Assembly (NCBI RefSeq): GCF_000027125.1
Contig: NC_017626.1
Direction: 5' to 3' (one strand)
DNA length: 64,000 nucleotides
Source of the DNA: Escherichia coli 042
GTDB lineage: Bacteria > Pseudomonadota > Gammaproteobacteria > Enterobacterales > Enterobacteriaceae
Shown: in pieces, positions 6,799 through 53,494 of the stretch
Layout of the letters: each line of letters starts with the position of its first letter
Position numbering within the stretch: position 1 is the stretch's first letter
Position numbers and translations under genes: made by a program
Notes under the pieces: model-generated
What the model was told of the DNA's origin: nothing
Seen by the model: the letters and a program-made list of their open reading frames with translations, nothing else
Databases searched by the model: none

Positions 6799-7161
6799 AG
6801 ACAGTGCGCTAAAGAAGCGCAAGGCGCAGATTTTAGCAGAAAACGACCCAAATAACGGATGATCCTTAAGGAGAAAAATAATTCATATCTATCCACATTA
6901 GAAAAAATCCCATTATCTCAATTATTAGGGATGGTCTTATTTTTAACTTCATGAAAAACAAAGACAAACATCATGCTGTAAAAAGCATGATAATAAATTA
7001 AAAGCGATGTAAATAATTTATGCACAAAGTTATCCACATGACGATTTGCGAGCGATCCAGAAGATCTACAAAAGATTTTCACGAAAAGCGGTGAAAAACT
7101 CATGTTTTCATCCTGTCTGTGGCATCCTTTACCCATAATCTGATAAACAGGCACGGACATT

Positions 7162-9948
7162 ATGGTTCAGATCCCCCAAAATCCACTTATCCTTGTAGAT
7201 GGTTCATCTTATCTTTATCGCGCATATCACGCGTTTCCCCCGCTGACTAACAGCGCAGGCGAGCCGACCGGTGCGATGTATGGTGTCCTCAACATGCTGC
7301 GCAGTCTGATCATGCAATATAAACCGACGCATGCAGCGGTGGTCTTTGACGCCAAGGGAAAAACCTTTCGTGATGAACTGTTTGAACATTACAAATCACA
7401 TCGCCCGCCAATGCCGGACGATCTGCGTGCACAAATCGAACCCTTGCACGCGATGGTTAAAGCGATGGGACTGCCGCTGCTGGCGGTTTCTGGCGTAGAA
7501 GCGGACGACGTTATCGGTACTCTGGCGCGGGAAGCCGAAAAAGCCGGGCGTCCGGTGCTGATCAGCACTGGCGATAAAGATATGGCGCAGCTGGTGACGC
7601 CAAATATTACGCTTATCAATACCATGACGAATACCATCCTCGGACCGGAAGAGGTGGTGAATAAGTACGGCGTGCCGCCAGAACTGATCATCGACTTCCT
7701 GGCGCTGATGGGTGACTCCTCTGATAACATCCCTGGCGTACCGGGCGTCGGTGAAAAAACCGCGCAGGCATTGCTGCAAGGTCTTGGCGGGCTGGATACG
7801 CTGTATGCCGAGCCAGAAAAAATTGCTGGGTTGAGCTTCCGTGGCGCGAAAACAATGGCAGCGAAGCTCGAGCAAAACAAAGAAGTTGCTTATCTCTCAT
7901 ACCAGCTGGCGACGATTAAAACCGACGTTGAACTGGAGCTGACCTGTGAACAACTGGAAGTGCAGCAACCGGCGGCGGAAGAGTTGTTGGGGCTGTTCAA
8001 AAAGTATGAGTTCAAACGCTGGACTGCTGATGTCGAAGCGGGCAAATGGTTACAGGCTAAAGGGGCGAAACCCGCAGCCAGGCCGCAGGAAACCAGTGTT
8101 GCAGACGAAGCGCCAGAAGTGACGGCAACGGTGATTTCTTATGACAACTACGTCACCATCCTTGATGAAGAAACACTGAAAGCGTGGATTGCGAAGCTGG
8201 AAAAAGCGCCGGTATTTGCATTTGATACCGAAACCGACAGCCTCGATAACATCTCTGCCAACCTGGTCGGGCTTTCTTTTGCTATCGAGCCAAGCGTAGC
8301 GGCATATATTCCGGTTGCTCATGATTATCTTGATGCGCCCGATCAAATCTCTCGCGAGCGTGCACTCGAGTTGCTAAAACCGCTGCTGGAAGATGAAAAG
8401 GCGCTGAAGGTCGGGCAAAACCTGAAATACGATCGCGGTATTCTGGCGAATTACGGCATTGAGCTGCGTGGGATTGCGTTTGATACCATGCTGGAGTCCT
8501 ACATTCTCAATAGCGTTGCCGGGCGTCACGATATGGACAGCCTCGCGGAACGTTGGTTGAAGCACAAAACCATCACTTTTGAAGAGATTGCGGGTAAAGG
8601 CAAAAATCAACTGACCTTTAACCAGATTGCCCTCGAAGAGGCCGGACGTTACGCCGCCGAAGATGCGGATGTCACCTTGCAGTTGCATCTGAAAATGTGG
8701 CCGGATCTGCAAAAACACAAAGGGCCGTTGAACGTCTTCGAGAATATCGAAATGCCGCTGGTGCCGGTGCTTTCACGCATTGAACGTAACGGTGTGAAGA
8801 TCGATCCGAAAGTGCTGCACAATCATTCTGAAGAGCTCACTCTTCGTCTGGCTGAGCTGGAAAAGAAAGCGCATGAAATTGCAGGTGAGGAGTTTAACCT
8901 TTCCTCCACCAAGCAGTTGCAAACCATTCTGTTTGAAAAACAGGGAATTAAACCGCTGAAGAAAACGCCGGGTGGCGCGCCGTCAACGTCGGAAGAGGTA
9001 CTGGAAGAACTGGCGCTGGACTATCCGTTGCCAAAAGTGATTCTGGAGTATCGTGGTCTGGCGAAGCTGAAATCGACCTACACCGACAAGCTGCCGCTGA
9101 TGATCAACCCGAAAACCGGGCGTGTACATACCTCTTATCACCAGGCAGTAACTGCAACGGGACGTTTATCGTCAACCGATCCTAACCTGCAAAACATTCC
9201 GGTGCGTAACGAAGAAGGTCGTCGTATCCGCCAGGCGTTTATTGGGCCAGAGGATTATGTGATTGTCTCGGCGGACTACTCGCAGATTGAACTGCGCATT
9301 ATGGCGCATCTCTCGCGTGACAAAGGCTTGCTGACCGCATTCGCGGAAGGAAAAGATATCCACCGGGCTACGGCGGCAGAAGTGTTTGGTTTGCCACTGG
9401 AAACCGTCACCAGCGAGCAACGCCGTAGCGCGAAAGCGATCAACTTTGGTCTGATTTATGGCATGAGTGCTTTCGGTCTGGCGCGGCAATTGAACATTCC
9501 ACGTAAAGAAGCGCAGAAGTACATGGACCTTTACTTCGAACGCTACCCTGGCGTGCTGGAGTATATGGAACGCACCCGTGCTCAGGCGAAAGAGCAGGGC
9601 TACGTTGAAACACTGGACGGACGCCGTCTGTATCTGCCGGATATCAAATCCAGCAATGGTGCTCGTCGTGCAGCGGCTGAACGTGCAGCCATTAACGCGC
9701 CAATGCAGGGAACCGCCGCCGACATTATCAAACGGGCGATGATTGCCGTTGATGCGTGGCTACAGGCTGAGCAACCGCGTGTGCGTATGATCATGCAGGT
9801 ACACGATGAACTGGTATTTGAAGTTCATAAAGATGATGTCGATGCCGTCGCGAAGCAGATTCATCAACTGATGGAAAACTGTACCCGTCTGGATGTGCCG
9901 TTGCTGGTGGAAGTGGGGAGTGGCGAAAACTGGGATCAGGCGCACTAA
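7162..9948 (+). CDS. polA: DNA polymerase I
   Basis: 928-aa ORF; 5'-3' exonuclease, 3'-5' exonuclease and polymerase ([23 protein letters not shown]) motifs. Confidence 0.97.
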
Positions 9949-45672: not shown

Positions 45673-48600
45673 TTACACCTTTTCCACATTCACAAGGAAG
45701 GACTTAAACTCCGGCGTCTGCGTGTTCGCATCACCAACGAAAGGCGTTAACGTATTGGCAATAAAGCCTTTTTTAGCTACGCCTTCATAGCCCCAGTGAA
45801 TCGGAATACCGATGGTATCGATATCTTTGCCGTTCGCTTTCAGCGTGCGAATACGTTTGGTCACCACCGCTTTGGCTTTGATATAGCCACGGTTGGAGGA
45901 GACTTTCACGGTATCGCCCTGGGCAATGCCAAGTTTATTCGCCAGCGACTCCCCGATTTCCACAAACTGCTCTGGTTGCAAAATCGCGTTCAACAGCGCG
46001 TGTTTGGTCCAGTAGTGGAAGTGCTCGGTCAGACGATAGGTGGTTCCGACATACGGGAACTTATCGGCTTTACCCAACGCTTCGGCGTCGTCTTTAAAGA
46101 TACGCGCAGCCGGGTTCGAGATAACGTTTGGATGCAGCGGGTTAGTTCCCAGCGGCGTTTCAAACGGCTCGTAGTGTTCCGGGAACGGACCTTCCGCCAT
46201 CTTATCAAGGGCAAACAGACGTCCCATGCCTTCCTGCTGCATGATAAACGGCCCTACGCCGCTGCCCGGAGGCGCTGCGCTGTAGTCCGGAATATCCCAG
46301 CCGGTCCACTTAGTGCCGTCCCATTTCAGCAACTGACGCTTCGGATCCCACGGGTTACCCTGCGGATCTGCGGAGGCGCGGTTATACAGGATGCGGCGAT
46401 TAAGCGGCCATGCCCATGCCCAGCCCAGCGTGTTACCGAGGCCAGACGGATCGGCGTTATCACGGCGTGCCATCTGGTTACCTTCTGGCGTCCAGCTACC
46501 GGCGAAAATCCAGCAGCCACAGGAGGTGGTACCGTCATCGCGCAGTTGGGCGAACGAGCTAAGTTGTTGGCCTTTCTTGACGATAACCGCACCGGTTGCC
46601 GGATCGGTAATATCGGCCAGCGCCTTACCGTTGCTCTCCATCGCTACTTCTTCCGACTTCGGCTCATGCGGGATAGCGTAGTTCCAGGTCATGTTCAGCA
46701 CCTGGTCCGGGTTCGCGCCACCCTGTTCGGCATACATCTTGCGCAAGCGCAGGAAGATACCGGAGAGGATCTCGCCATCAGTCAGCGCAATCCCCGGGGC
46801 GTCCGCACCTTTCCAGTGCCACTGCAACCAGCGACCGGAGTTAACGATTGAACCGTTCTCTTCCGCGAAGCAGGTCGATGGCAGACGGAACACTTCGGTC
46901 TGGATCTTCGACGAGTCAACTTCGTTCAGCTCACCGTGGTTCTGCCAGAAGTTAGAGGTTTCAGTGTTCAGCGGGTCGATGGTGACGAGGAACTTCAGTT
47001 TCGACAGACAACCGATCACTTTGTTTTTGTTCGGGAATGAGGCAACAGGGTTAAAGCCCTGGCAGATATAGCCATTGACCTTGCCTTCTTTCATCATCTC
47101 GAAGTATTGCAGGACGTCGTAGCCTTTATCCCACTTCGGCAACCAGTCAAAGCCCCAGCTATTTTCCGCCGTCGCTTTATCACCAAAGAAGGCCTTCATC
47201 ATAGAGACGAAGAATTTCGGGTAGTTGCCCCAGTAGTTTACCTGGCCTTCCAGCAGCGGTTTTGGCGTGTTGGCGGTAAGGTAGGTTTGCAGATCGGTCT
47301 GCTTCTCGCTCGGCAGCGTCATGTAACCCGGCAGGCTCTGCGACAGCAGCCCCAGGTCCGTCAGCCCCTGAATATTGGAGTGACCGCGCAGGGCGTTAAC
47401 GCCGCCGCCTGCCATCCCCATATTGCCGAGCAGCAGCTGGATCATCGCCATCGTACGAATGTTTTGCGCACCAACAGAGTGTTGCGTCCAGCCGAGGGCA
47501 TACAGGAACGAGGCAGTTTTATCGTGAGCACTGGTTTCGGCGATGTATTCGCAGACTTTCAGGAACGCGTCTTTTGGCGTACCACAGATGTTTTCAACCA
47601 CATCTGGCGTGTAGCGGGAAACGTGCTGTTTCAGCAAGTTCCACACGCAGCGCGGATGTTGCAGCGTGGTATCGCGTTTGGCGAAGCCGTTTTCGTCCAG
47701 TTCGTAAGTCCAGGAGGATTTATCGTACTTGCGTTTTTCCGCGTCATAGCCGGTGAACAGGCCATCTTCAAAGCCGTAATCCTCACGCACGATCAGGCTG
47801 GCGTTGGTATAGGCTTCGGTGTATTCGCGGTTGAATTTTTCATTGTTCAGCAGGTACAGCAATACGCCTGACAGGAAAGCAATGTCAGTACCGGAACGAA
47901 TAGGGGCATAGTAGTCAGCCACCGCCGCCGTACGCGTAAAGCGAGGATCGATCACAATCAGCTTCGCGCCATTGTGAATTTTGGCTTCCATCGCCCAGCG
48001 GAATCCGACCGGGTGAGCTTCAGCGGCGTTACCGCCCATCACCACGACGAGGTTGGCGTTCTTGATGTCGACCCAGTGGTTGGTCATCGCACCGCGACCA
48101 AATGTTGGAGCAAGACTTGCTACCGTTGGTCCGTGTCAGACACGCGCCTGGTTGTCGACCGCGAGCATACCCAGCGCGCGGGAGAATTTTTGCGTTAAAT
48201 AGCCGGTTTCGTTACTCGACGCGGAAGCACACAGCATCCCGGTGGAGAGCCAGCGGTTAACGGTCACGCCTTCGGCGTTTTGCGCAATGTAGTTAGCATC
48301 GCGGTCTTCTTTCATCAGTTTGGCGATGCGATCAAACGCCTCTTCCCAACTGATTTGCTGCCATTTATCAGAACCTGGCGCACGGTATTCCGGAAACTTC
48401 AGACGGCTTTCGGAGTGGATGAAATCCACCAGGCCAGCGCCTTTCGGACAAAGTGCACCGCGGTTGACCGGGTGATCCGGATCGCCTTCGATATGGAAGA
48501 TAGATGCTTTGGCGTTTTTTGCTCCGTCACCGAGGCTGTACATCAACAGCCCACAGCCTACGGAACAATAGGTGCAGGTATTACGGGTTTCGCGGGTGCG

Positions 48601-48723
48601 CAGCAGTTTATACTGCCGGGTTTCCGCGAGCGCTACGCTGGGGGCAAAACCCAGTGCCGCTGCCGTGGTGCCTGCCATACCGCCAGCGCAGATCTTAAAG
48701 AACTGCCTTCTGCTGACCTGCAT
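45673..48723 (-). CDS. fdoG: Formate dehydrogenase-O catalytic subunit (selenoprotein; in-frame UGA = Sec)
   Basis: Two same-frame ORFs (45673-48087 and 48136-48723) separated only by an in-frame TGA at 48136-48138; Tat signal MQVSRRQFFK; molybdopterin oxidoreductase motifs. Confidence 0.93.
48085..48135 (-). promoter_or_regulatory. SECIS-like stem-loop immediately 3' of the fdoG UGA
   Basis: Self-complementary mRNA segment CACGGACCAACGGUAGCAAGUCUUGCUCCAACAUUUGGUCGCGGUG directly after the UGA. Confidence 0.6.
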
Positions 48724-48916: not shown

Positions 48917-49750
48917 GTGAAAAAAACACAGCAAAAAGAAATCGAAAATGTGACAAATGTCACAGGTGTTCGTCAAGTTGAGTTATGGCGGCGTGATGAT
49001 TTACAACACCCACGGTTAGATGAGGTGGCGGAAGAGGTTCCCGTTGCGCTGGTCTACAACGGCATTTCGCATGTAGTGATGATGGCGTCACCCAAAGACC
49101 TTGAGTACTTTGCGCTCGGTTTTTCGCTTTCCGAGGGGATTATCGAAAGTCCACGCGATATCTTCGGTATGGATGTCGTTCCTTCCTGTAATGGTCTGGA
49201 AGTGCAAATTGAGCTTTCCAGCCGCCGCTTTATGGGGTTGAAGGAGCGTCGCCGGGCACTGGCGGGACGTACGGGATGTGGCGTGTGCGGCGTGGAGCAA
49301 CTTAATGACATCGGAAAACCGGTGCAGCCGCTACCGTTCACCCAGACGTTTGATCTCAACAAACTGGATGATGCATTACGTCATCTCAATGATTTCCAGC
49401 CAGTGGGGCAACTGACCGGTTGTACTCACGCCGCCGCCTGGATGTTGCCATCTGGCGAACTGGTCGGCGGGCATGAAGACGTGGGTCGCCATGTGGCGCT
49501 GGACAAACTGTTAGGCCGCCGGTCACAAGAAGGGGAAAGCTGGCAGCAAGGTGCGGTACTGGTTTCCAGTCGTGCCAGTTATGAAATGGTGCAAAAGTCG
49601 GCGATGTGCGGCGTAGAGATTTTGTTTGCGGTGTCTGCCGCGACCACGCTTGCTGTAGAAGTGGCTGAACGCTGTAATTTGACGCTGGTGGGCTTTTGTA
49701 AACCGGGTCGGGCAACGGTTTATACCCATCCGCAGCGTTTGAGCAATTAA
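48917..49750 (+). CDS. fdhD: Formate dehydrogenase accessory sulfurtransferase FdhD
   Basis: 277-aa [25 protein letters not shown]... Confidence 0.93.
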
Positions 49751-49754
49751 TTAA

Positions 49755-49793
49755 AATAAGTCCTGCGATATATATTAAATTGCAGGACTTATT
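49755..49793 (+). terminator. fdhD intrinsic terminator
   Basis: Hairpin AAGTCCTGCGATATATATTAAATTGCAGGACTT followed by T-rich run. Confidence 0.7.
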
Positions 49794-49799
49794 CATTTC

Positions 49800-50461
49800 G
49801 TGAATTTTATTATTTTATTTATAAACAAAACGCGTGTAGTGGCGTTAACGCCTGCGCTGCAACCTATTGATGGCGTGGCGGTGAGTTATATTGATGCTGC
49901 CGTGGCGTTGGGTAATACCATTAACGAAATGGATAAATATTACACCCAGGAAAATTATAAAGACGATGCGTTTGCGAAAGGGAAAACGCTGCACCAGACA
50001 TTCTTAAAAATCTTGAAGCCTTTGAACCTGTAGCAGAATCTTATCATGCGGCGATTCAGGAAATTAACGATAAGCGCCAGCTTGCGGAATTGAAAAATAT
50101 TGAAGAAAGAGAAGGGGAAACATTCCACTACTACTCTCTGGCAGTCATGATTTCAGCGAAACAAATTAATAACCTGATATCGCAAAATAAGTTTGATACA
50201 GAAGCGGCAATGAAGAAAGTGTCTGAACTGGAAACGCTGGTGGCGCAAGCCAAAGAAGCGGATAAAAGCGGCATGAATTTCTCGTTTATTAATTCGGCAG
50301 GCCAGTATCAACTCGAGGCTAAAAAATACGTTCGCCGCATCAGAGATAAAGTCCTGTACTCTGACTGGGATAAAGAGCAACTTCAGGACGCAAACTCAAT
50401 CTGGATGGCCGAAGACTCATTTCCCGAGAGCATTATGCGAGTACAACGAAATGGTCGATGA
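49800..50461 (+). pseudogene. Frameshifted, probably 5'-truncated gene remnant in the position where I expect yiiG
   Basis: Two overlapping open frames (49800-50033; ~49963-50461) consistent with one ancestral ORF split by a frameshift near 49960-50035; no plausible N-terminus or RBS. Confidence 0.4.
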
Positions 50462-50881
50462 AATATTTCAGTCAATTGTAATCGCGGGGCGGGTTTGTGA
50501 TGAGCGCGGATATGTCACGAAGTCGTGACAATATAAAGCAGAGTGAAGGATAAATTTTGTGAATAAAGTATCATTATTTAATGATTTTGTGAATGTTTAA
50601 ATGTCTCAGATAATTTGTTTAAGCGTTATTTATATTTGTGGCTTATGAGTCAGCGTGAATCATATCTAATATTTTTTACGATATTTAGTTAAAAACGGCA
50701 CTATTGTTATATTCCTCACGTTCCAGGAAATCAGCGGATTTACTCATATTATATGGCGGGATACTATCCATCGGCCTGCTGAAGTTGGATTAAAAATTCG
50801 AAAGTGCACACCTTATATTTCTCTATATACGTATTCCTTTTGGAAAGCGTAGGGTCTCTTTTATTTCAGGGAACGTAAATA

Positions 50882-52276
50882 ATGAAAAAATCGACATTAT
50901 CTTTAGCCATCGGTTTATTATTGGCATGTAGTACCGGATTGGCAAAAACACAGCATTTAACGCTGGAACAACGCATGGCATTGCTGGAAGAACGCCTGGA
51001 AGCGGCAGAAATGCGGGCAGCAAAAGCAGAGAGCCAGGTTAAACAGCTGCAGACACAACAAGCCGCTGAGATCCGCGAAATTAAGGCTGCCCAGGGCAAT
51101 ACGCCGGTAAATGGACAGGCAACGGCGGAATCTGCAAAGAAAAATTCCACCTCACCTAATCTTTTGCTCTCAGGTTATGGCGATTTAAAAATCTACGGCG
51201 ACGTAGAATTTAATATGGATGCGGAAAGTAATCATGGCCTGCTGGCAATGACCAACGCTGATGTGAATAGCGATCCCACTAATGAACAGTGGAATCTCAA
51301 TGGTCGTATTCTGTTAGGTTTTGATGGTATGCGAAAACTGGATAATGGTTATTTCGCCGGGTTCTCCGCACAACCGCTGGGGGACATGCACGGTTCAGTA
51401 AATATCGATGATGCGGTATTCTTCTTTGGCAAAGAAAACGACTGGAAGGTCAAAGTAGGCCGTTTTGAAGCCTACGATATGTTCCCGCTGAATCAGGATA
51501 CCTTTGTTGAACATTCCGGTAATACTGCGAACGATCTTTATGACGATGGCAGCGGTTATATCTATATGATGAAAGAGGGCCGCGGGCGCTCTAACGCTGG
51601 CGGTAATTTCCTCGTCAGCAAACAACTTGATAACTGGTATTTTGAATTAAACACGTTACTTGAAGACGGAACATCTTTATATAATGACGGTAATTATCAT
51701 GGACGCGATATGGAGCAGCAGAAAAATGTTGCTTATCTGCGTCCAGTAATTGCCTGGTCGCCGACGGAAGAATTCACCGTTTCCGCAGCGATGGAAGCGA
51801 ACGTAGTAAATAATGCTTATGGTTATACCGATAGCAAGGGTAATTTTGTCGATCAGTCCGATCGTACCGGCTATGGTATGAGCATGACCTGGAATGGCCT
51901 GAAAACGGATCCGGAAAATGGCGTCGTGGTTAATCTTAATACCGCCTATTTAGATGCTAATAATGAGAAAGATTTCACTGCCGGGATTAACGCGCTGTGG
52001 AAACGTTTCGAGCTGGGTTATATCTACGCGCACAATAAGATTGATGAATTCAGCGGTGTAGTTTGTGATAACGACTGCTGGATTGATGATGAAGGGACGT
52101 ACACCATTCACACCATTCATGCGTCTTATCAGTTCGCTAATGTGATGGATATGGAGAACTTTAATATTTACCTCGGGACGTATTACTCCATTCTGGATAG
52201 CGACGGTGATAAAAAACACGGTGATGATACTGATGACCGTTACGGGGCACGCGTTCGCTTTAAATACTTCTTCTGA
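50882..52276 (+). CDS. Outer-membrane beta-barrel, carbohydrate-selective porin-like (OprB/ScrY-type) with N-terminal coiled coil
   Basis: 464-aa ORF; signal peptide MKKSTLSLAIGLLLACSTGLA; heptad-like LEQRMALLEERLEAAEMRAAKAESQVKQLQ; C-terminal ...VRFKYFF. Confidence 0.65.
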   Translation: MKKSTLSLAIGLLLACSTGLAKTQHLTLEQRMALLEERLEAAEMRAAKAESQVKQLQTQQAAEIREIKAAQGNTPVNGQATAESAKKNSTSPNLLLSGYGDLKIYGDVEFNMDAESNHGLLAMTNADVNSDPTNEQWNLNGRILLGFDGMRKLDNGYFAGFSAQPLGDMHGSVNIDDAVFFFGKENDWKVKVGRFEAYDMFPLNQDTFVEHSGNTANDLYDDGSGYIYMMKEGRGRSNAGGNFLVSKQLDNWYFELNTLLEDGTSLYNDGNYHGRDMEQQKNVAYLRPVIAWSPTEEFTVSAAMEANVVNNAYGYTDSKGNFVDQSDRTGYGMSMTWNGLKTDPENGVVVNLNTAYLDANNEKDFTAGINALWKRFELGYIYAHNKIDEFSGVVCDNDCWIDDEGTYTIHTIHASYQFANVMDMENFNIYLGTYYSILDSDGDKKHGDDTDDRYGARVRFKYFF

Positions 52277-52316
52277 TGAAGGCGCGGTGCTGGATATTTT
52301 CCGGCACCGCAACTCA

Positions 52317-52631
52317 TTAAGGCAGGTAAAACACTTCTTGCAGCTCGCTACTGACTGGGCTGTTATCCGGGTTAGCTGGCATAACGTCGGTCATATATTT
52401 CCACCAACGTTGGCAAACATCAGTACTGGCTACCGCATTCCACCGTTCTTCAGATTCAATCTCTACCGTGGCAAACAGCAGATTACGCGCTTTGTCGAGG
52501 TAAATGGCGTAGTTATGCGCACCGTGAGATTTCAACACTGCTTCCAGTTCCGGCCAGATTGGATTATGCCGACGCTGATACTCTTCGTGGGCGTCGGGGT
52601 TAACCTGCATGACAAAGGCTTTGCGGATCAT
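52317..52631 (-). CDS. rhaM: L-rhamnose mutarotase
   Basis: 104-aa [25 protein letters not shown]... Confidence 0.92.
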
Positions 52632-52640
52632 GTTTGCTCC

Positions 52641-53465
52641 TTACAGCGCCAGCGCACTGGCGAGTGGTGTAACGCCGAAACGCTGGCCGAGCGCTATCAG
52701 CTCTTCACGGCTGATGGTCTGTTTCATGCCGCCCATCGAATAAACCTTCACTAATACTTGTGCTGATTTTTCTGCGGTGTCGATTAAACCGAATGTTTCA
52801 TCCAGTGTCGGACCGCTGCCGAAGACGCCGTGGAAGGGCCACAACACCAGCGAATGTTTTTGCATTTCCTGTGCGGTCGCCTGGCCGATTTCGTCGGTGC
52901 CGGGCACCATCCACGGCAGAATGCCAACGCCATCCGGGAACACTACCAGACACTCAGTGCTGCCTTCCCACAGTTGGCGAGTGAAGACCGCGGTGTCGTT
53001 TTCCAGTACGTAGGTAAGGGCGATCAGGTTGGTGGCATGGCAGTGCATGATCACCCGATCTTTACCGTTGGTGGCTTTAATGCGTTCGCAATGAGAGAGG
53101 AAGTGCGCCGGAAGTTCAGAGGTTGGAACGGCTTCGTGAGTTAGCCCCCAGAGAATATGGTAGCCCGCGCCGTCGCTGTCGACTTTTACGACGCCTAAGT
53201 TAGCCGCAGGATCAAGCTGGACGTTGCGGAAGAATTTGCCGGAGCCGGTGACAATAAACGGTGTATTTGCCAGTAAAGGCATGGGCTGGCTGAGCGGGAT
53301 ATAGCGCGGTTGTTGGTGGAAGTTGTCGTGATACGGTGCGATATCGGCGTCATCCAGGCGCAGTGTCAGGTTACCACCATTGCGCTCGTCCCAGCCTTTC
53401 AGCCAGGCGTCGGTGGTGGCTTTGATCATTCCCTGGACAAACCAGGACTGGGTAATGTTTTGCAT
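52641..53465 (-). CDS. rhaD: Rhamnulose-1-phosphate aldolase
   Basis: 274-aa product from [20 protein letters not shown]-track start at 53555 runs into the upstream REP and is judged too long. Confidence 0.92.
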
Positions 53466-53494
53466 GTTCTGTGTTCCTGTAAATTCGGTGTTGT

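Follow-up and report, generated by a model that had tools for sequence, protein, structure and literature searches.

We analysed a 64,000-nt stretch of the Escherichia coli 042 chromosome (NC_017626.1; hereafter the window) and focused on the interval between fdhD and rhaM, which holds a decayed open reading frame (ORF) and a gene for a 464-aa outer-membrane porin. Our comparisons suggest, with a probability that we put at roughly 0.8, that this interval is a deletion allele of a variable but ancient enterobacterial locus, and that the porin is an ortholog of the glycoporin RafY with its own CRP-activated promoter. The feature is ordinary: it is a known family member in a common, published strain-variable arrangement and no new system. 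An earlier note on this DNA, made from the sequence alone, had described fdhD, a decayed ORF, an AT-rich spacer of ~420 bp, the 464-aa porin gene and rhaM in this order, and we recovered all of these elements at the positions it gave.

Comparison across E. coli strains, which the earlier note had suggested, revealed three arrangements of the interval. The K-12 type carries fdhD-yiiG-frvRXBA-rhaM and has no porin gene. In O157:H7 EDL933 and in IAI39, fdhD-yiiG-frvRXBA is followed by the porin gene, which is divergent from frvA, and then by rhaM. In the window, in the B2 strain 536 and in strain ECA64, the order is fdhD, a yiiG remnant, the porin gene and rhaM. The porin arrangement is not that of K-12, and the yiiG-frvRXBA content that the earlier note had expected here is indeed what K-12-type genomes hold. 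The features of the window interval are as follows.

48917-49750, + strand: fdhD, left flank, intact (ORF call; RefSeq annotation of a 99.3%-identical locus).
49839-50461, + strand: yiiG (DUF3829 lipoprotein) pseudogene, 623 bp (Pfam DUF3829 on both fragments; nucleotide alignment to EDL933 and K-12 yiiG).
49839-49846, no strand: deletion junction 1, with 8-bp microhomology GTGGCGTT (blastn coordinates and junction sequences versus EDL933).
50458-50461, no strand: deletion junction 2, with ATGA microhomology (blastn coordinates and junction sequences versus EDL933).
50462-50881, no strand: spacer, the former frvA-porin divergent intergenic region, 420 bp, 34% GC (alignment to EDL933; composition).
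50705-50720, + strand: candidate CRP site TGTTATATTCCTCACG (cross-genus conservation of the motif).
50739-50767, + strand: candidate sigma-70 promoter (conserved spacing across orthologs).
50882-52276, + strand: rafY-like glycoporin gene, 464 aa (ORF; PF16966; AlphaFold2 model).
52284-52310, no strand: GC-rich hairpin in the porin-rhaM gap (fold energy; kept in EDL933).
52317-52631, - strand: rhaM, right flank, intact, final gene of the rhaBADM operon (ORF and RefSeq annotation).

The 2.7-kb interval is 99.3% identical to the ECA64 locus. In other strains with the same arrangement, the RefSeq labels read 'YiiG family protein, frameshifted; incomplete' and then 'carbohydrate porin'.

We aligned the window to EDL933 and found that three segments are gone. 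At junction 1, 470 bp are missing (EDL933 locus L002 3117-3586), comprising the yiiG promoter region and codons 1-138, and a single copy of the 8-bp repeat is kept. At junction 2, the loss amounts to 4,791 bp (L002 4210-9000) and takes the last 19 bp of yiiG, all of frvR, frvX, frvB and frvA, and 18 bp upstream of frvA. A third deletion removed 38 bp from the spacer, near 50559; the left ~100 bp of the spacer is the frvA-proximal remnant. Both large junctions are base-for-base identical in strain 536, and we therefore regard both large deletions as single old events. Junction 1 is also identical in ECA64. Its sharing was read from alignment in 536 and ECA64 only; a 140-bp probe over junction 1 is not discriminating, because genomes with an intact yiiG also score as covered across the 470-bp gap.

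These alignments also decide between the two options that the earlier note had offered, a replacement or a deletion at the locus. The replacement option, taken as a horizontally acquired porin cassette in the place of yiiG-frvRXBA, would fit with the low GC content of the porin gene and the spacer (45% and 34%, under the window mean of 50%), with the absence of the porin from K-12 and with the presence of related porins on plasmids. However, the porin and frvRXBA occur together in EDL933 and IAI39, and as far as the deletion junction the window spacer before the porin gene aligns collinearly with the spacer between frvA and the porin gene of EDL933. Moreover, at least eight enterobacterial genera have the porin next to rhaM, and it is not flanked by mobile-element genes or repeats. 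A cassette that displaced the operon is thus extremely unlikely, and of the two options only deletion survived: the alignments indicate that the frv operon is missing through deletion and that the porin did not replace it.

The decayed ORF after fdhD is, as read from its sequence, a yiiG pseudogene. Two ORF fragments, at 49800-50033 and 50090-50461, match Pfam DUF3829, the YiiG family (E = 1e-22 and 9e-28), and the yiiG homology is confined to 49839-50461, equivalent to codons 139-345 of 351. The remnant has no start codon and no signal/lipobox region, which lay within the deleted codons, and its last 6 codons went with the 3' end at junction 2. Within it we observed two frameshifts: a -1 shift from A6 to A5 in a run near 50006-50010, which is common to ECA64 and not found in 536, and a +1 insertion near 50416, close to the end of the remnant, which is common to 536. 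Both fragments therefore match the family profile, and no intact frame with a signal/lipobox region is present. This agrees with the frameshifted coding remnant that the earlier note had reported here.

To place these arrangements in the species, we counted them among 5,426 complete RefSeq E. coli genomes. The porin gene is covered to at least 80% in 2,557 of them, and in 2,828 the 168-bp filler of the K-12 type stands there instead. The frv-deletion junction, probed with 140 bp that span it, gave a contiguous match in 1,161 genomes, consistent with the 1,166 in which at least 80% of the whole interval is covered. Loss of the frv cluster in sequence type 131 (ST131) has already been published (PMC9205054). 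In the K-12-type locus (L003 15158-15324), the unrelated, AT-rich 168-bp filler stands where other strains have 1.78 kb of porin promoter and gene, and terminates in a hairpin of its own; it showed no homology to the porin region by blastn (word size 7, E ≤ 10).

Next to rhaM, the porin is widespread. Orthologs that are 68-85% identical and convergent with rhaM are found in Citrobacter spp., C. rodentium, Klebsiella sp. B345, K. spallanzanii, Kluyvera, Pseudocitrobacter, Superficieibacter and two further Enterobacteriaceae. Since the porin coexists with frvRXBA in EDL933 and IAI39 and adjoins rhaM in other genera, we consider it an old resident of the site and K-12 the allele without it. The cross-genus synteny thus points to K-12 as the allele that lost the porin.

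The genes upstream of the porin differ between genera. In Klebsiella (sp. B345 and K. spallanzanii), the porin is immediately preceded, at the same fdhD-rhaM locus, by rafR-rafA-rafB, which encode a LacI repressor (rafR), an alpha-galactosidase of glycoside hydrolase family 36 (GH36; rafA) and a LacY-type permease (rafB). Superficieibacter has rafRAB about 5 kb upstream of the porin. In Enterobacter sp. ENT03, frvRXBA lies directly upstream, as in EDL933, and rafRAB lies downstream. In Citrobacter, azlDC and a gene for a helix-turn-helix regulator are found upstream. More distant paralogs (~60% identity) adjoin phosphotransferase system (PTS) genes or pairs of a major facilitator superfamily (MFS) transporter and a GH32 hydrolase. 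Klebsiella spallanzanii SB6411 carries four RafY-family paralogs in different contexts (L014, L020, L022 and L029): one with rafRAB beside rhaM, one with MFS and GH32 genes, and two others. In some species, the RafY family has split into a number of substrate-linked copies.

No raf genes were found in the window interval, and the window porin is thus not linked to a raf cluster at its own locus. The earlier note had stated that no cognate catabolic genes accompany the porin. This holds for the window and fails elsewhere, since rafR-rafA-rafB adjoin the Klebsiella ortholog at the same locus. By these comparisons, the E. coli chromosomal porin is an orphan, in that the raf catabolic genes of its Klebsiella and Enterobacter orthologs are not at its locus, and it does not appear to be a relic of frv.

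An origin as such a relic would mean that the porin once served the Frv PTS in the outer membrane, tied to it by a shared divergent control region, and that it became functionless after frv was lost. The divergent orientation of the porin and frvA in EDL933, IAI39 and Enterobacter sp. ENT03 speaks for this. However, the porin ORF is intact, and its ratio of nonsynonymous to synonymous substitution rates (dN/dS) is 0.036 against strain 536, which is likewise frv-deleted. The ratio is 0.076 against EDL933 and ~0.05 against Citrobacter rodentium and Kluyvera. In addition, more than a thousand genomes (the 1,161 counted above) carry the frv-less arrangement, the porin stands without adjacent frv in Citrobacter, Klebsiella and Pseudocitrobacter, and K-12 retains frv without the porin. 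We therefore rate a functionless frv relic as highly improbable. The substitution ratios indicate instead that the porin is under purifying selection independent of frv, and that the gene has been kept functional.

A second partnership to be weighed is with the rhamnose genes. If the porin served rhamnose metabolism, for instance in the uptake of rhamnose-containing oligosaccharides, its fixed place by rhaM would be explained, and the convergent adjacency is indeed kept across genera, with ~40-110 bp between the genes and a shared hairpin. In the window, 40 bp separate the two stop codons. The convergent orientation nevertheless means that porin and rhaM are not co-transcribed, and the porin has a conserved, putative promoter region of its own. 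Family members elsewhere keep company with raf clusters (GH36 and LacY-type permease) or MFS and GH32 clusters and not with rha genes, and 52% of E. coli genomes, K-12 included, keep the rha operon without the porin. By orientation, gene neighbours and distribution, a role in rhamnose metabolism is thus very unlikely.

We next describe the porin protein, which the earlier note had called OprB/ScrY-like and had proposed to examine by profile search. The protein matches PF16966 (Porin_8, 'Porin-like glycoporin RafY') with 513.9 bits (cutoff 25; E = 3.1e-154), and residues 104-464 align to profile positions 1-372 of 372. The LamB (PF02264) and OprB (PF04966) profiles gave no match at E ≤ 1, and the profile of the ScrY-type N-terminal extension (PF11471) stayed below threshold (15.4 bits vs 25.7). 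The N-terminus reads MKKSTLSLAIGLLLACSTGLA followed by KTQ, with a predicted signal peptide at aa 1-21; residues 28-73 are predicted to be helical and to form a periplasmic coiled coil, and the protein ends in ...RFKYFF. The 'LLAC' in the signal peptide was considered as a lipoprotein signal and rejected, because the Cys is not conserved in orthologs, where the consensus is AN. A signal peptide, a barrel fold and a C-terminal aromatic residue, as in an exported outer-membrane beta-barrel, were all found. The earlier description as an outer-membrane carbohydrate porin with a ScrY-like N-terminal coiled coil therefore stands, with the family corrected to RafY/PF16966. The exact protein is public as CBG37098.1 / D3H529_ECO44 (enteroaggregative E. 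coli strain 042), annotated 'carbohydrate porin'.

A sequence search of the PDB with the porin returned no relative, and its structure was predicted with AlphaFold2. The model from a 50-sequence alignment reached a predicted local distance difference test score (pLDDT) of 71 and a predicted template modelling score (pTM) of 0.66; a first, less diverse alignment had given a pLDDT of 62. The model shows the signal-peptide helix, a long helix at residues 28-73 and a 16-strand barrel at aa ~101-463, with a short hairpin at aa 313-324 that we assign to a loop. The 16-stranded OmpF-class porins are the nearest match to the predicted fold, and the 18-stranded ScrY and LamB are less close. The loop at aa 195-240 (nt 51464-51601), between strands 5 and 6, holds the densest invariant run in the RafY family, with the consensus FEAYDMFPLNQDTFVE.SGNTANDLY.DG.GYIYMMKEGRGRS. 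This loop, which is modelled with low confidence, probably forms the pore constriction; it takes the position of L3 in OmpF-class porins.

The model also bears on whether the porin could be a substrate-specific channel of the LamB/ScrY or OprB type with a saturable binding site. ScrY and LamB (PF02264; TCDB 1.B.3) are likewise outer-membrane oligosaccharide channels, their substrate range overlaps with that of RafY according to the RafY literature, and ScrY also has an N-terminal periplasmic coiled coil. However, neither family profile was matched, the barrel in the model does not have the 18 strands of LamB and ScrY, and its nearest folds are OmpF-class. RafY itself is reported as a general diffusion pore without a carbohydrate-binding site, in the account of Andersen 1998 given in PMC4827864. 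A specific channel of this kind is accordingly very unlikely.

Among known porins, the closest is RafY of the raffinose plasmid pRSD2 (PF16966; TCDB 1.B.15), which shares with the window porin its family, the 464-aa length, the order of signal peptide, coiled coil and barrel, and the ...FKYFF end. About 170 E. coli plasmids carry a copy with ~79% aa identity to the porin. In the IncF plasmid that we examined, the copy lies downstream of rafR-rafA-rafB-rafD and is therefore RafY itself; the raf-linked IncF copies have 78-79% aa identity to the window porin, and a neighbour-joining tree places plasmid RafY as the sister of the E. coli chromosomal porin. In contrast to plasmid RafY, the window porin is chromosomal, sits at a fixed site by rhaM and has no adjacent rafRABD in E. 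coli. It also has a conserved upstream region of its own, CRP-like site included, which is absent from the IS1-disrupted plasmid copy that we examined. RafY reportedly shifts the apparent Km of raffinose transport and is said to form non-saturable channels at about the nS scale. Maltose, sucrose and raffinose all cross it, and it has the properties of a general diffusion pore, according to work cited in PMC4809568 and PMC4827864.

The 'rafY2' of E. coli O157:H7 (PMC4809568; RefSeq 'carbohydrate porin') is the same gene; the EDL933 copy has 98% protein identity and the same rhaM-side site. There, frvRXBA and an intact yiiG lie upstream, whereas in the window they are deleted or decayed. In Klebsiella pneumoniae, the RafY-family porin GlyP is an alternative large channel whose up-regulation compensates for the loss of OmpK35/36, and a de-repressed RafY-family porin suffices to restore the fitness of OmpK35/36 mutants (bioRxiv 10.64898/2026.03.29.715108). 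Such channels can therefore act as alternative general porins. GlyP belongs to a LacI-regulated operon of permease, hydrolase and porin, whereas the E. coli porin gene stands alone with no adjacent repressor. DcaP of Acinetobacter baumannii passes dicarboxylates and sulbactam. DcaP (PDB 6eus) and the OmpF-class trimeric porins share only ~12% sequence identity with the window porin and differ in their substrates.

A piece of the chromosomal locus was also observed on a conjugative plasmid. Positions 6840-9589 of CP057400 (IncI-gamma/K1) correspond to window 50721-53470, a 2.75-kb piece with the porin core promoter, the porin gene (99.8% aa identity), rhaM and rhaD; it is joined to the downstream end of a gene pair for an MFS transporter and a GH32 hydrolase. 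The breakpoint lies directly after the CRP-like motif, and the plasmid copy thus does not have the CRP-like site.

The proposed promoter was found by comparing upstream regions across genera. These regions have mostly diverged, and one block stands out, TGTTAnnnnnnTCACG, which occurs once in the window, at 50705-50720 (0.11 expected by chance). Across the E. coli loci and 10 of 11 non-E. coli chromosomal orthologs, the motif is found 161-239 nt before the porin ATG, although the flanking sequences have diverged and the genes further upstream differ. The window site, TGTTATATTCCTCACG, agrees with TGTGA-N6-TCACA, the CRP core, in 8 of 10 positions. Exactly 18 nt separate the motif from a TTTACN-like hexamer in E. 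coli and 9 of the 11 other orthologs, and TAnnnn comes after a further 16-17 nt. The window hexamers are TTTACT (-35; 50739-50744) and TACTAT (-10; 50762-50767), with a 17-nt spacer. Transcription of the porin gene would then start at about 50774, with a 5' untranslated region of about 107 nt, and the candidate CRP site would be centred at about -61.5, in the geometry of a class I CRP promoter. We infer from the motif and its position that CRP is the likely regulator.

No significant fold was found in the predicted 5' untranslated region (z = 0.12), and an Rfam scan of 49700-52700 at E ≤ 1 returned nothing. At the other end of the gene, the porin-rhaM hairpin has a fold energy of -28.1 kcal/mol (z = -5.7) on the + strand and -21.5 kcal/mol (z = -3.7) on the - strand. 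It has no U-tract and is kept in EDL933, and both transcripts may end there, at a shared terminator. A second conserved upstream block, TTTTTACGAT(A/T)TTT(A/C)GTT, was observed at 50673-50690, 14 nt upstream of the CRP-like site. This block is common to Escherichia and Citrobacter only, and could be the binding site of a regulator.

Several points weigh against our interpretation of the locus as a deletion allele with a CRP-activated RafY ortholog. The function of the chromosomal porin is transferred by analogy from a 78%-identical paralog. The AlphaFold2 models are of moderate confidence and the loop at 195-240 is poorly modelled, which makes the strand count and the pore geometry provisional. 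The CRP-like site agrees with the core at only 8 of 10 positions with the same two mismatches conserved, and another regulator could recognise it. A generic scan for sigma-70 and terminator consensus did not exceed shuffled expectation, so the promoter proposal is drawn entirely from conservation (phylogenetic footprinting). Finally, the direction of change, with the porin ancestral and K-12 derived, appears from cross-genus synteny in a sample that does not include E. albertii or E. fergusonii.

The history of the locus is as follows. The fuller E. coli arrangement is fdhD-yiiG-frvRXBA, a divergent porin gene and a convergent rhaM. In the lineage of the window, two deletions between short direct repeats, GTGGCGTT and ATGA, cost yiiG its 5' third and took out the frv PTS operon entirely, and frameshifts after the deletions completed the decay of yiiG. 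The gene that survives is the chromosomal ortholog of the plasmid glycoporin RafY. For its function we propose the following picture. The porin would be transcribed from its own promoter under activation by cyclic AMP-CRP, and so be made when glucose is absent (catabolite de-repression). It would be exported by the Sec pathway and inserted by the beta-barrel assembly machinery (BAM), with the coiled coil in the periplasm, and would probably trimerise like its structural neighbours. By analogy with RafY, the window porin is most likely a wide, sugar-passing channel, trimeric and non-saturable. Such a channel would ease the passage of di- to oligosaccharides (raffinose-family sugars, sucrose and maltodextrins) across the outer membrane and would supply whichever inner-membrane permease the strain has.

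We made some further observations around the interval. Over window positions 40001-64000 (24 kb), none of the complete RefSeq E. coli genomes in the collection is more than ~98% identical. An in-frame TGA at 48136-48138 divides the gene for the formate dehydrogenase alpha subunit (45673-48723, - strand) into two ORFs, which jointly span 3,051 bp or 1,016 codons and match the annotated length; this TGA is the expected selenocysteine codon, and the gene is no pseudogene. In the related IAI39 locus (L066 6679-8027), IS1397 is inserted between rhaD and rhaA. The EDL933 rhaT (L002 16986-18020) is annotated as a pseudogene with an internal stop.

The porin gene is already annotated as 'carbohydrate porin' in thousands of genomes, and as rafY2 in O157:H7. 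Nearly half of the strains carry it, including B2 strains (536, Nissle 1917 and ST131) and O157:H7. For this porin K-12 holds the atypical allele, so porin inventories based on K-12 miss a channel that is found in ~47% of complete E. coli genomes. Comparison across genera links the orphan porin to raf clusters and suggests a specific CRP-dependent promoter. The compensation for major-porin loss by RafY-family channels in K. pneumoniae may also hold in porin-deficient clinical E. coli. More tentatively, in a reading that we hold to be less likely than not, the rhaM-side site could be the ancestral chromosomal home of the Enterobacteriaceae raf system and the source of plasmid rafY, with the E. 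coli porin acting as a CRP-controlled 'hunger' channel for large solutes. If this is true, the porin could be a route into clinical lineages that has been overlooked, for oligosaccharides and possibly for bulky antibiotics, much like GlyP in K. pneumoniae.

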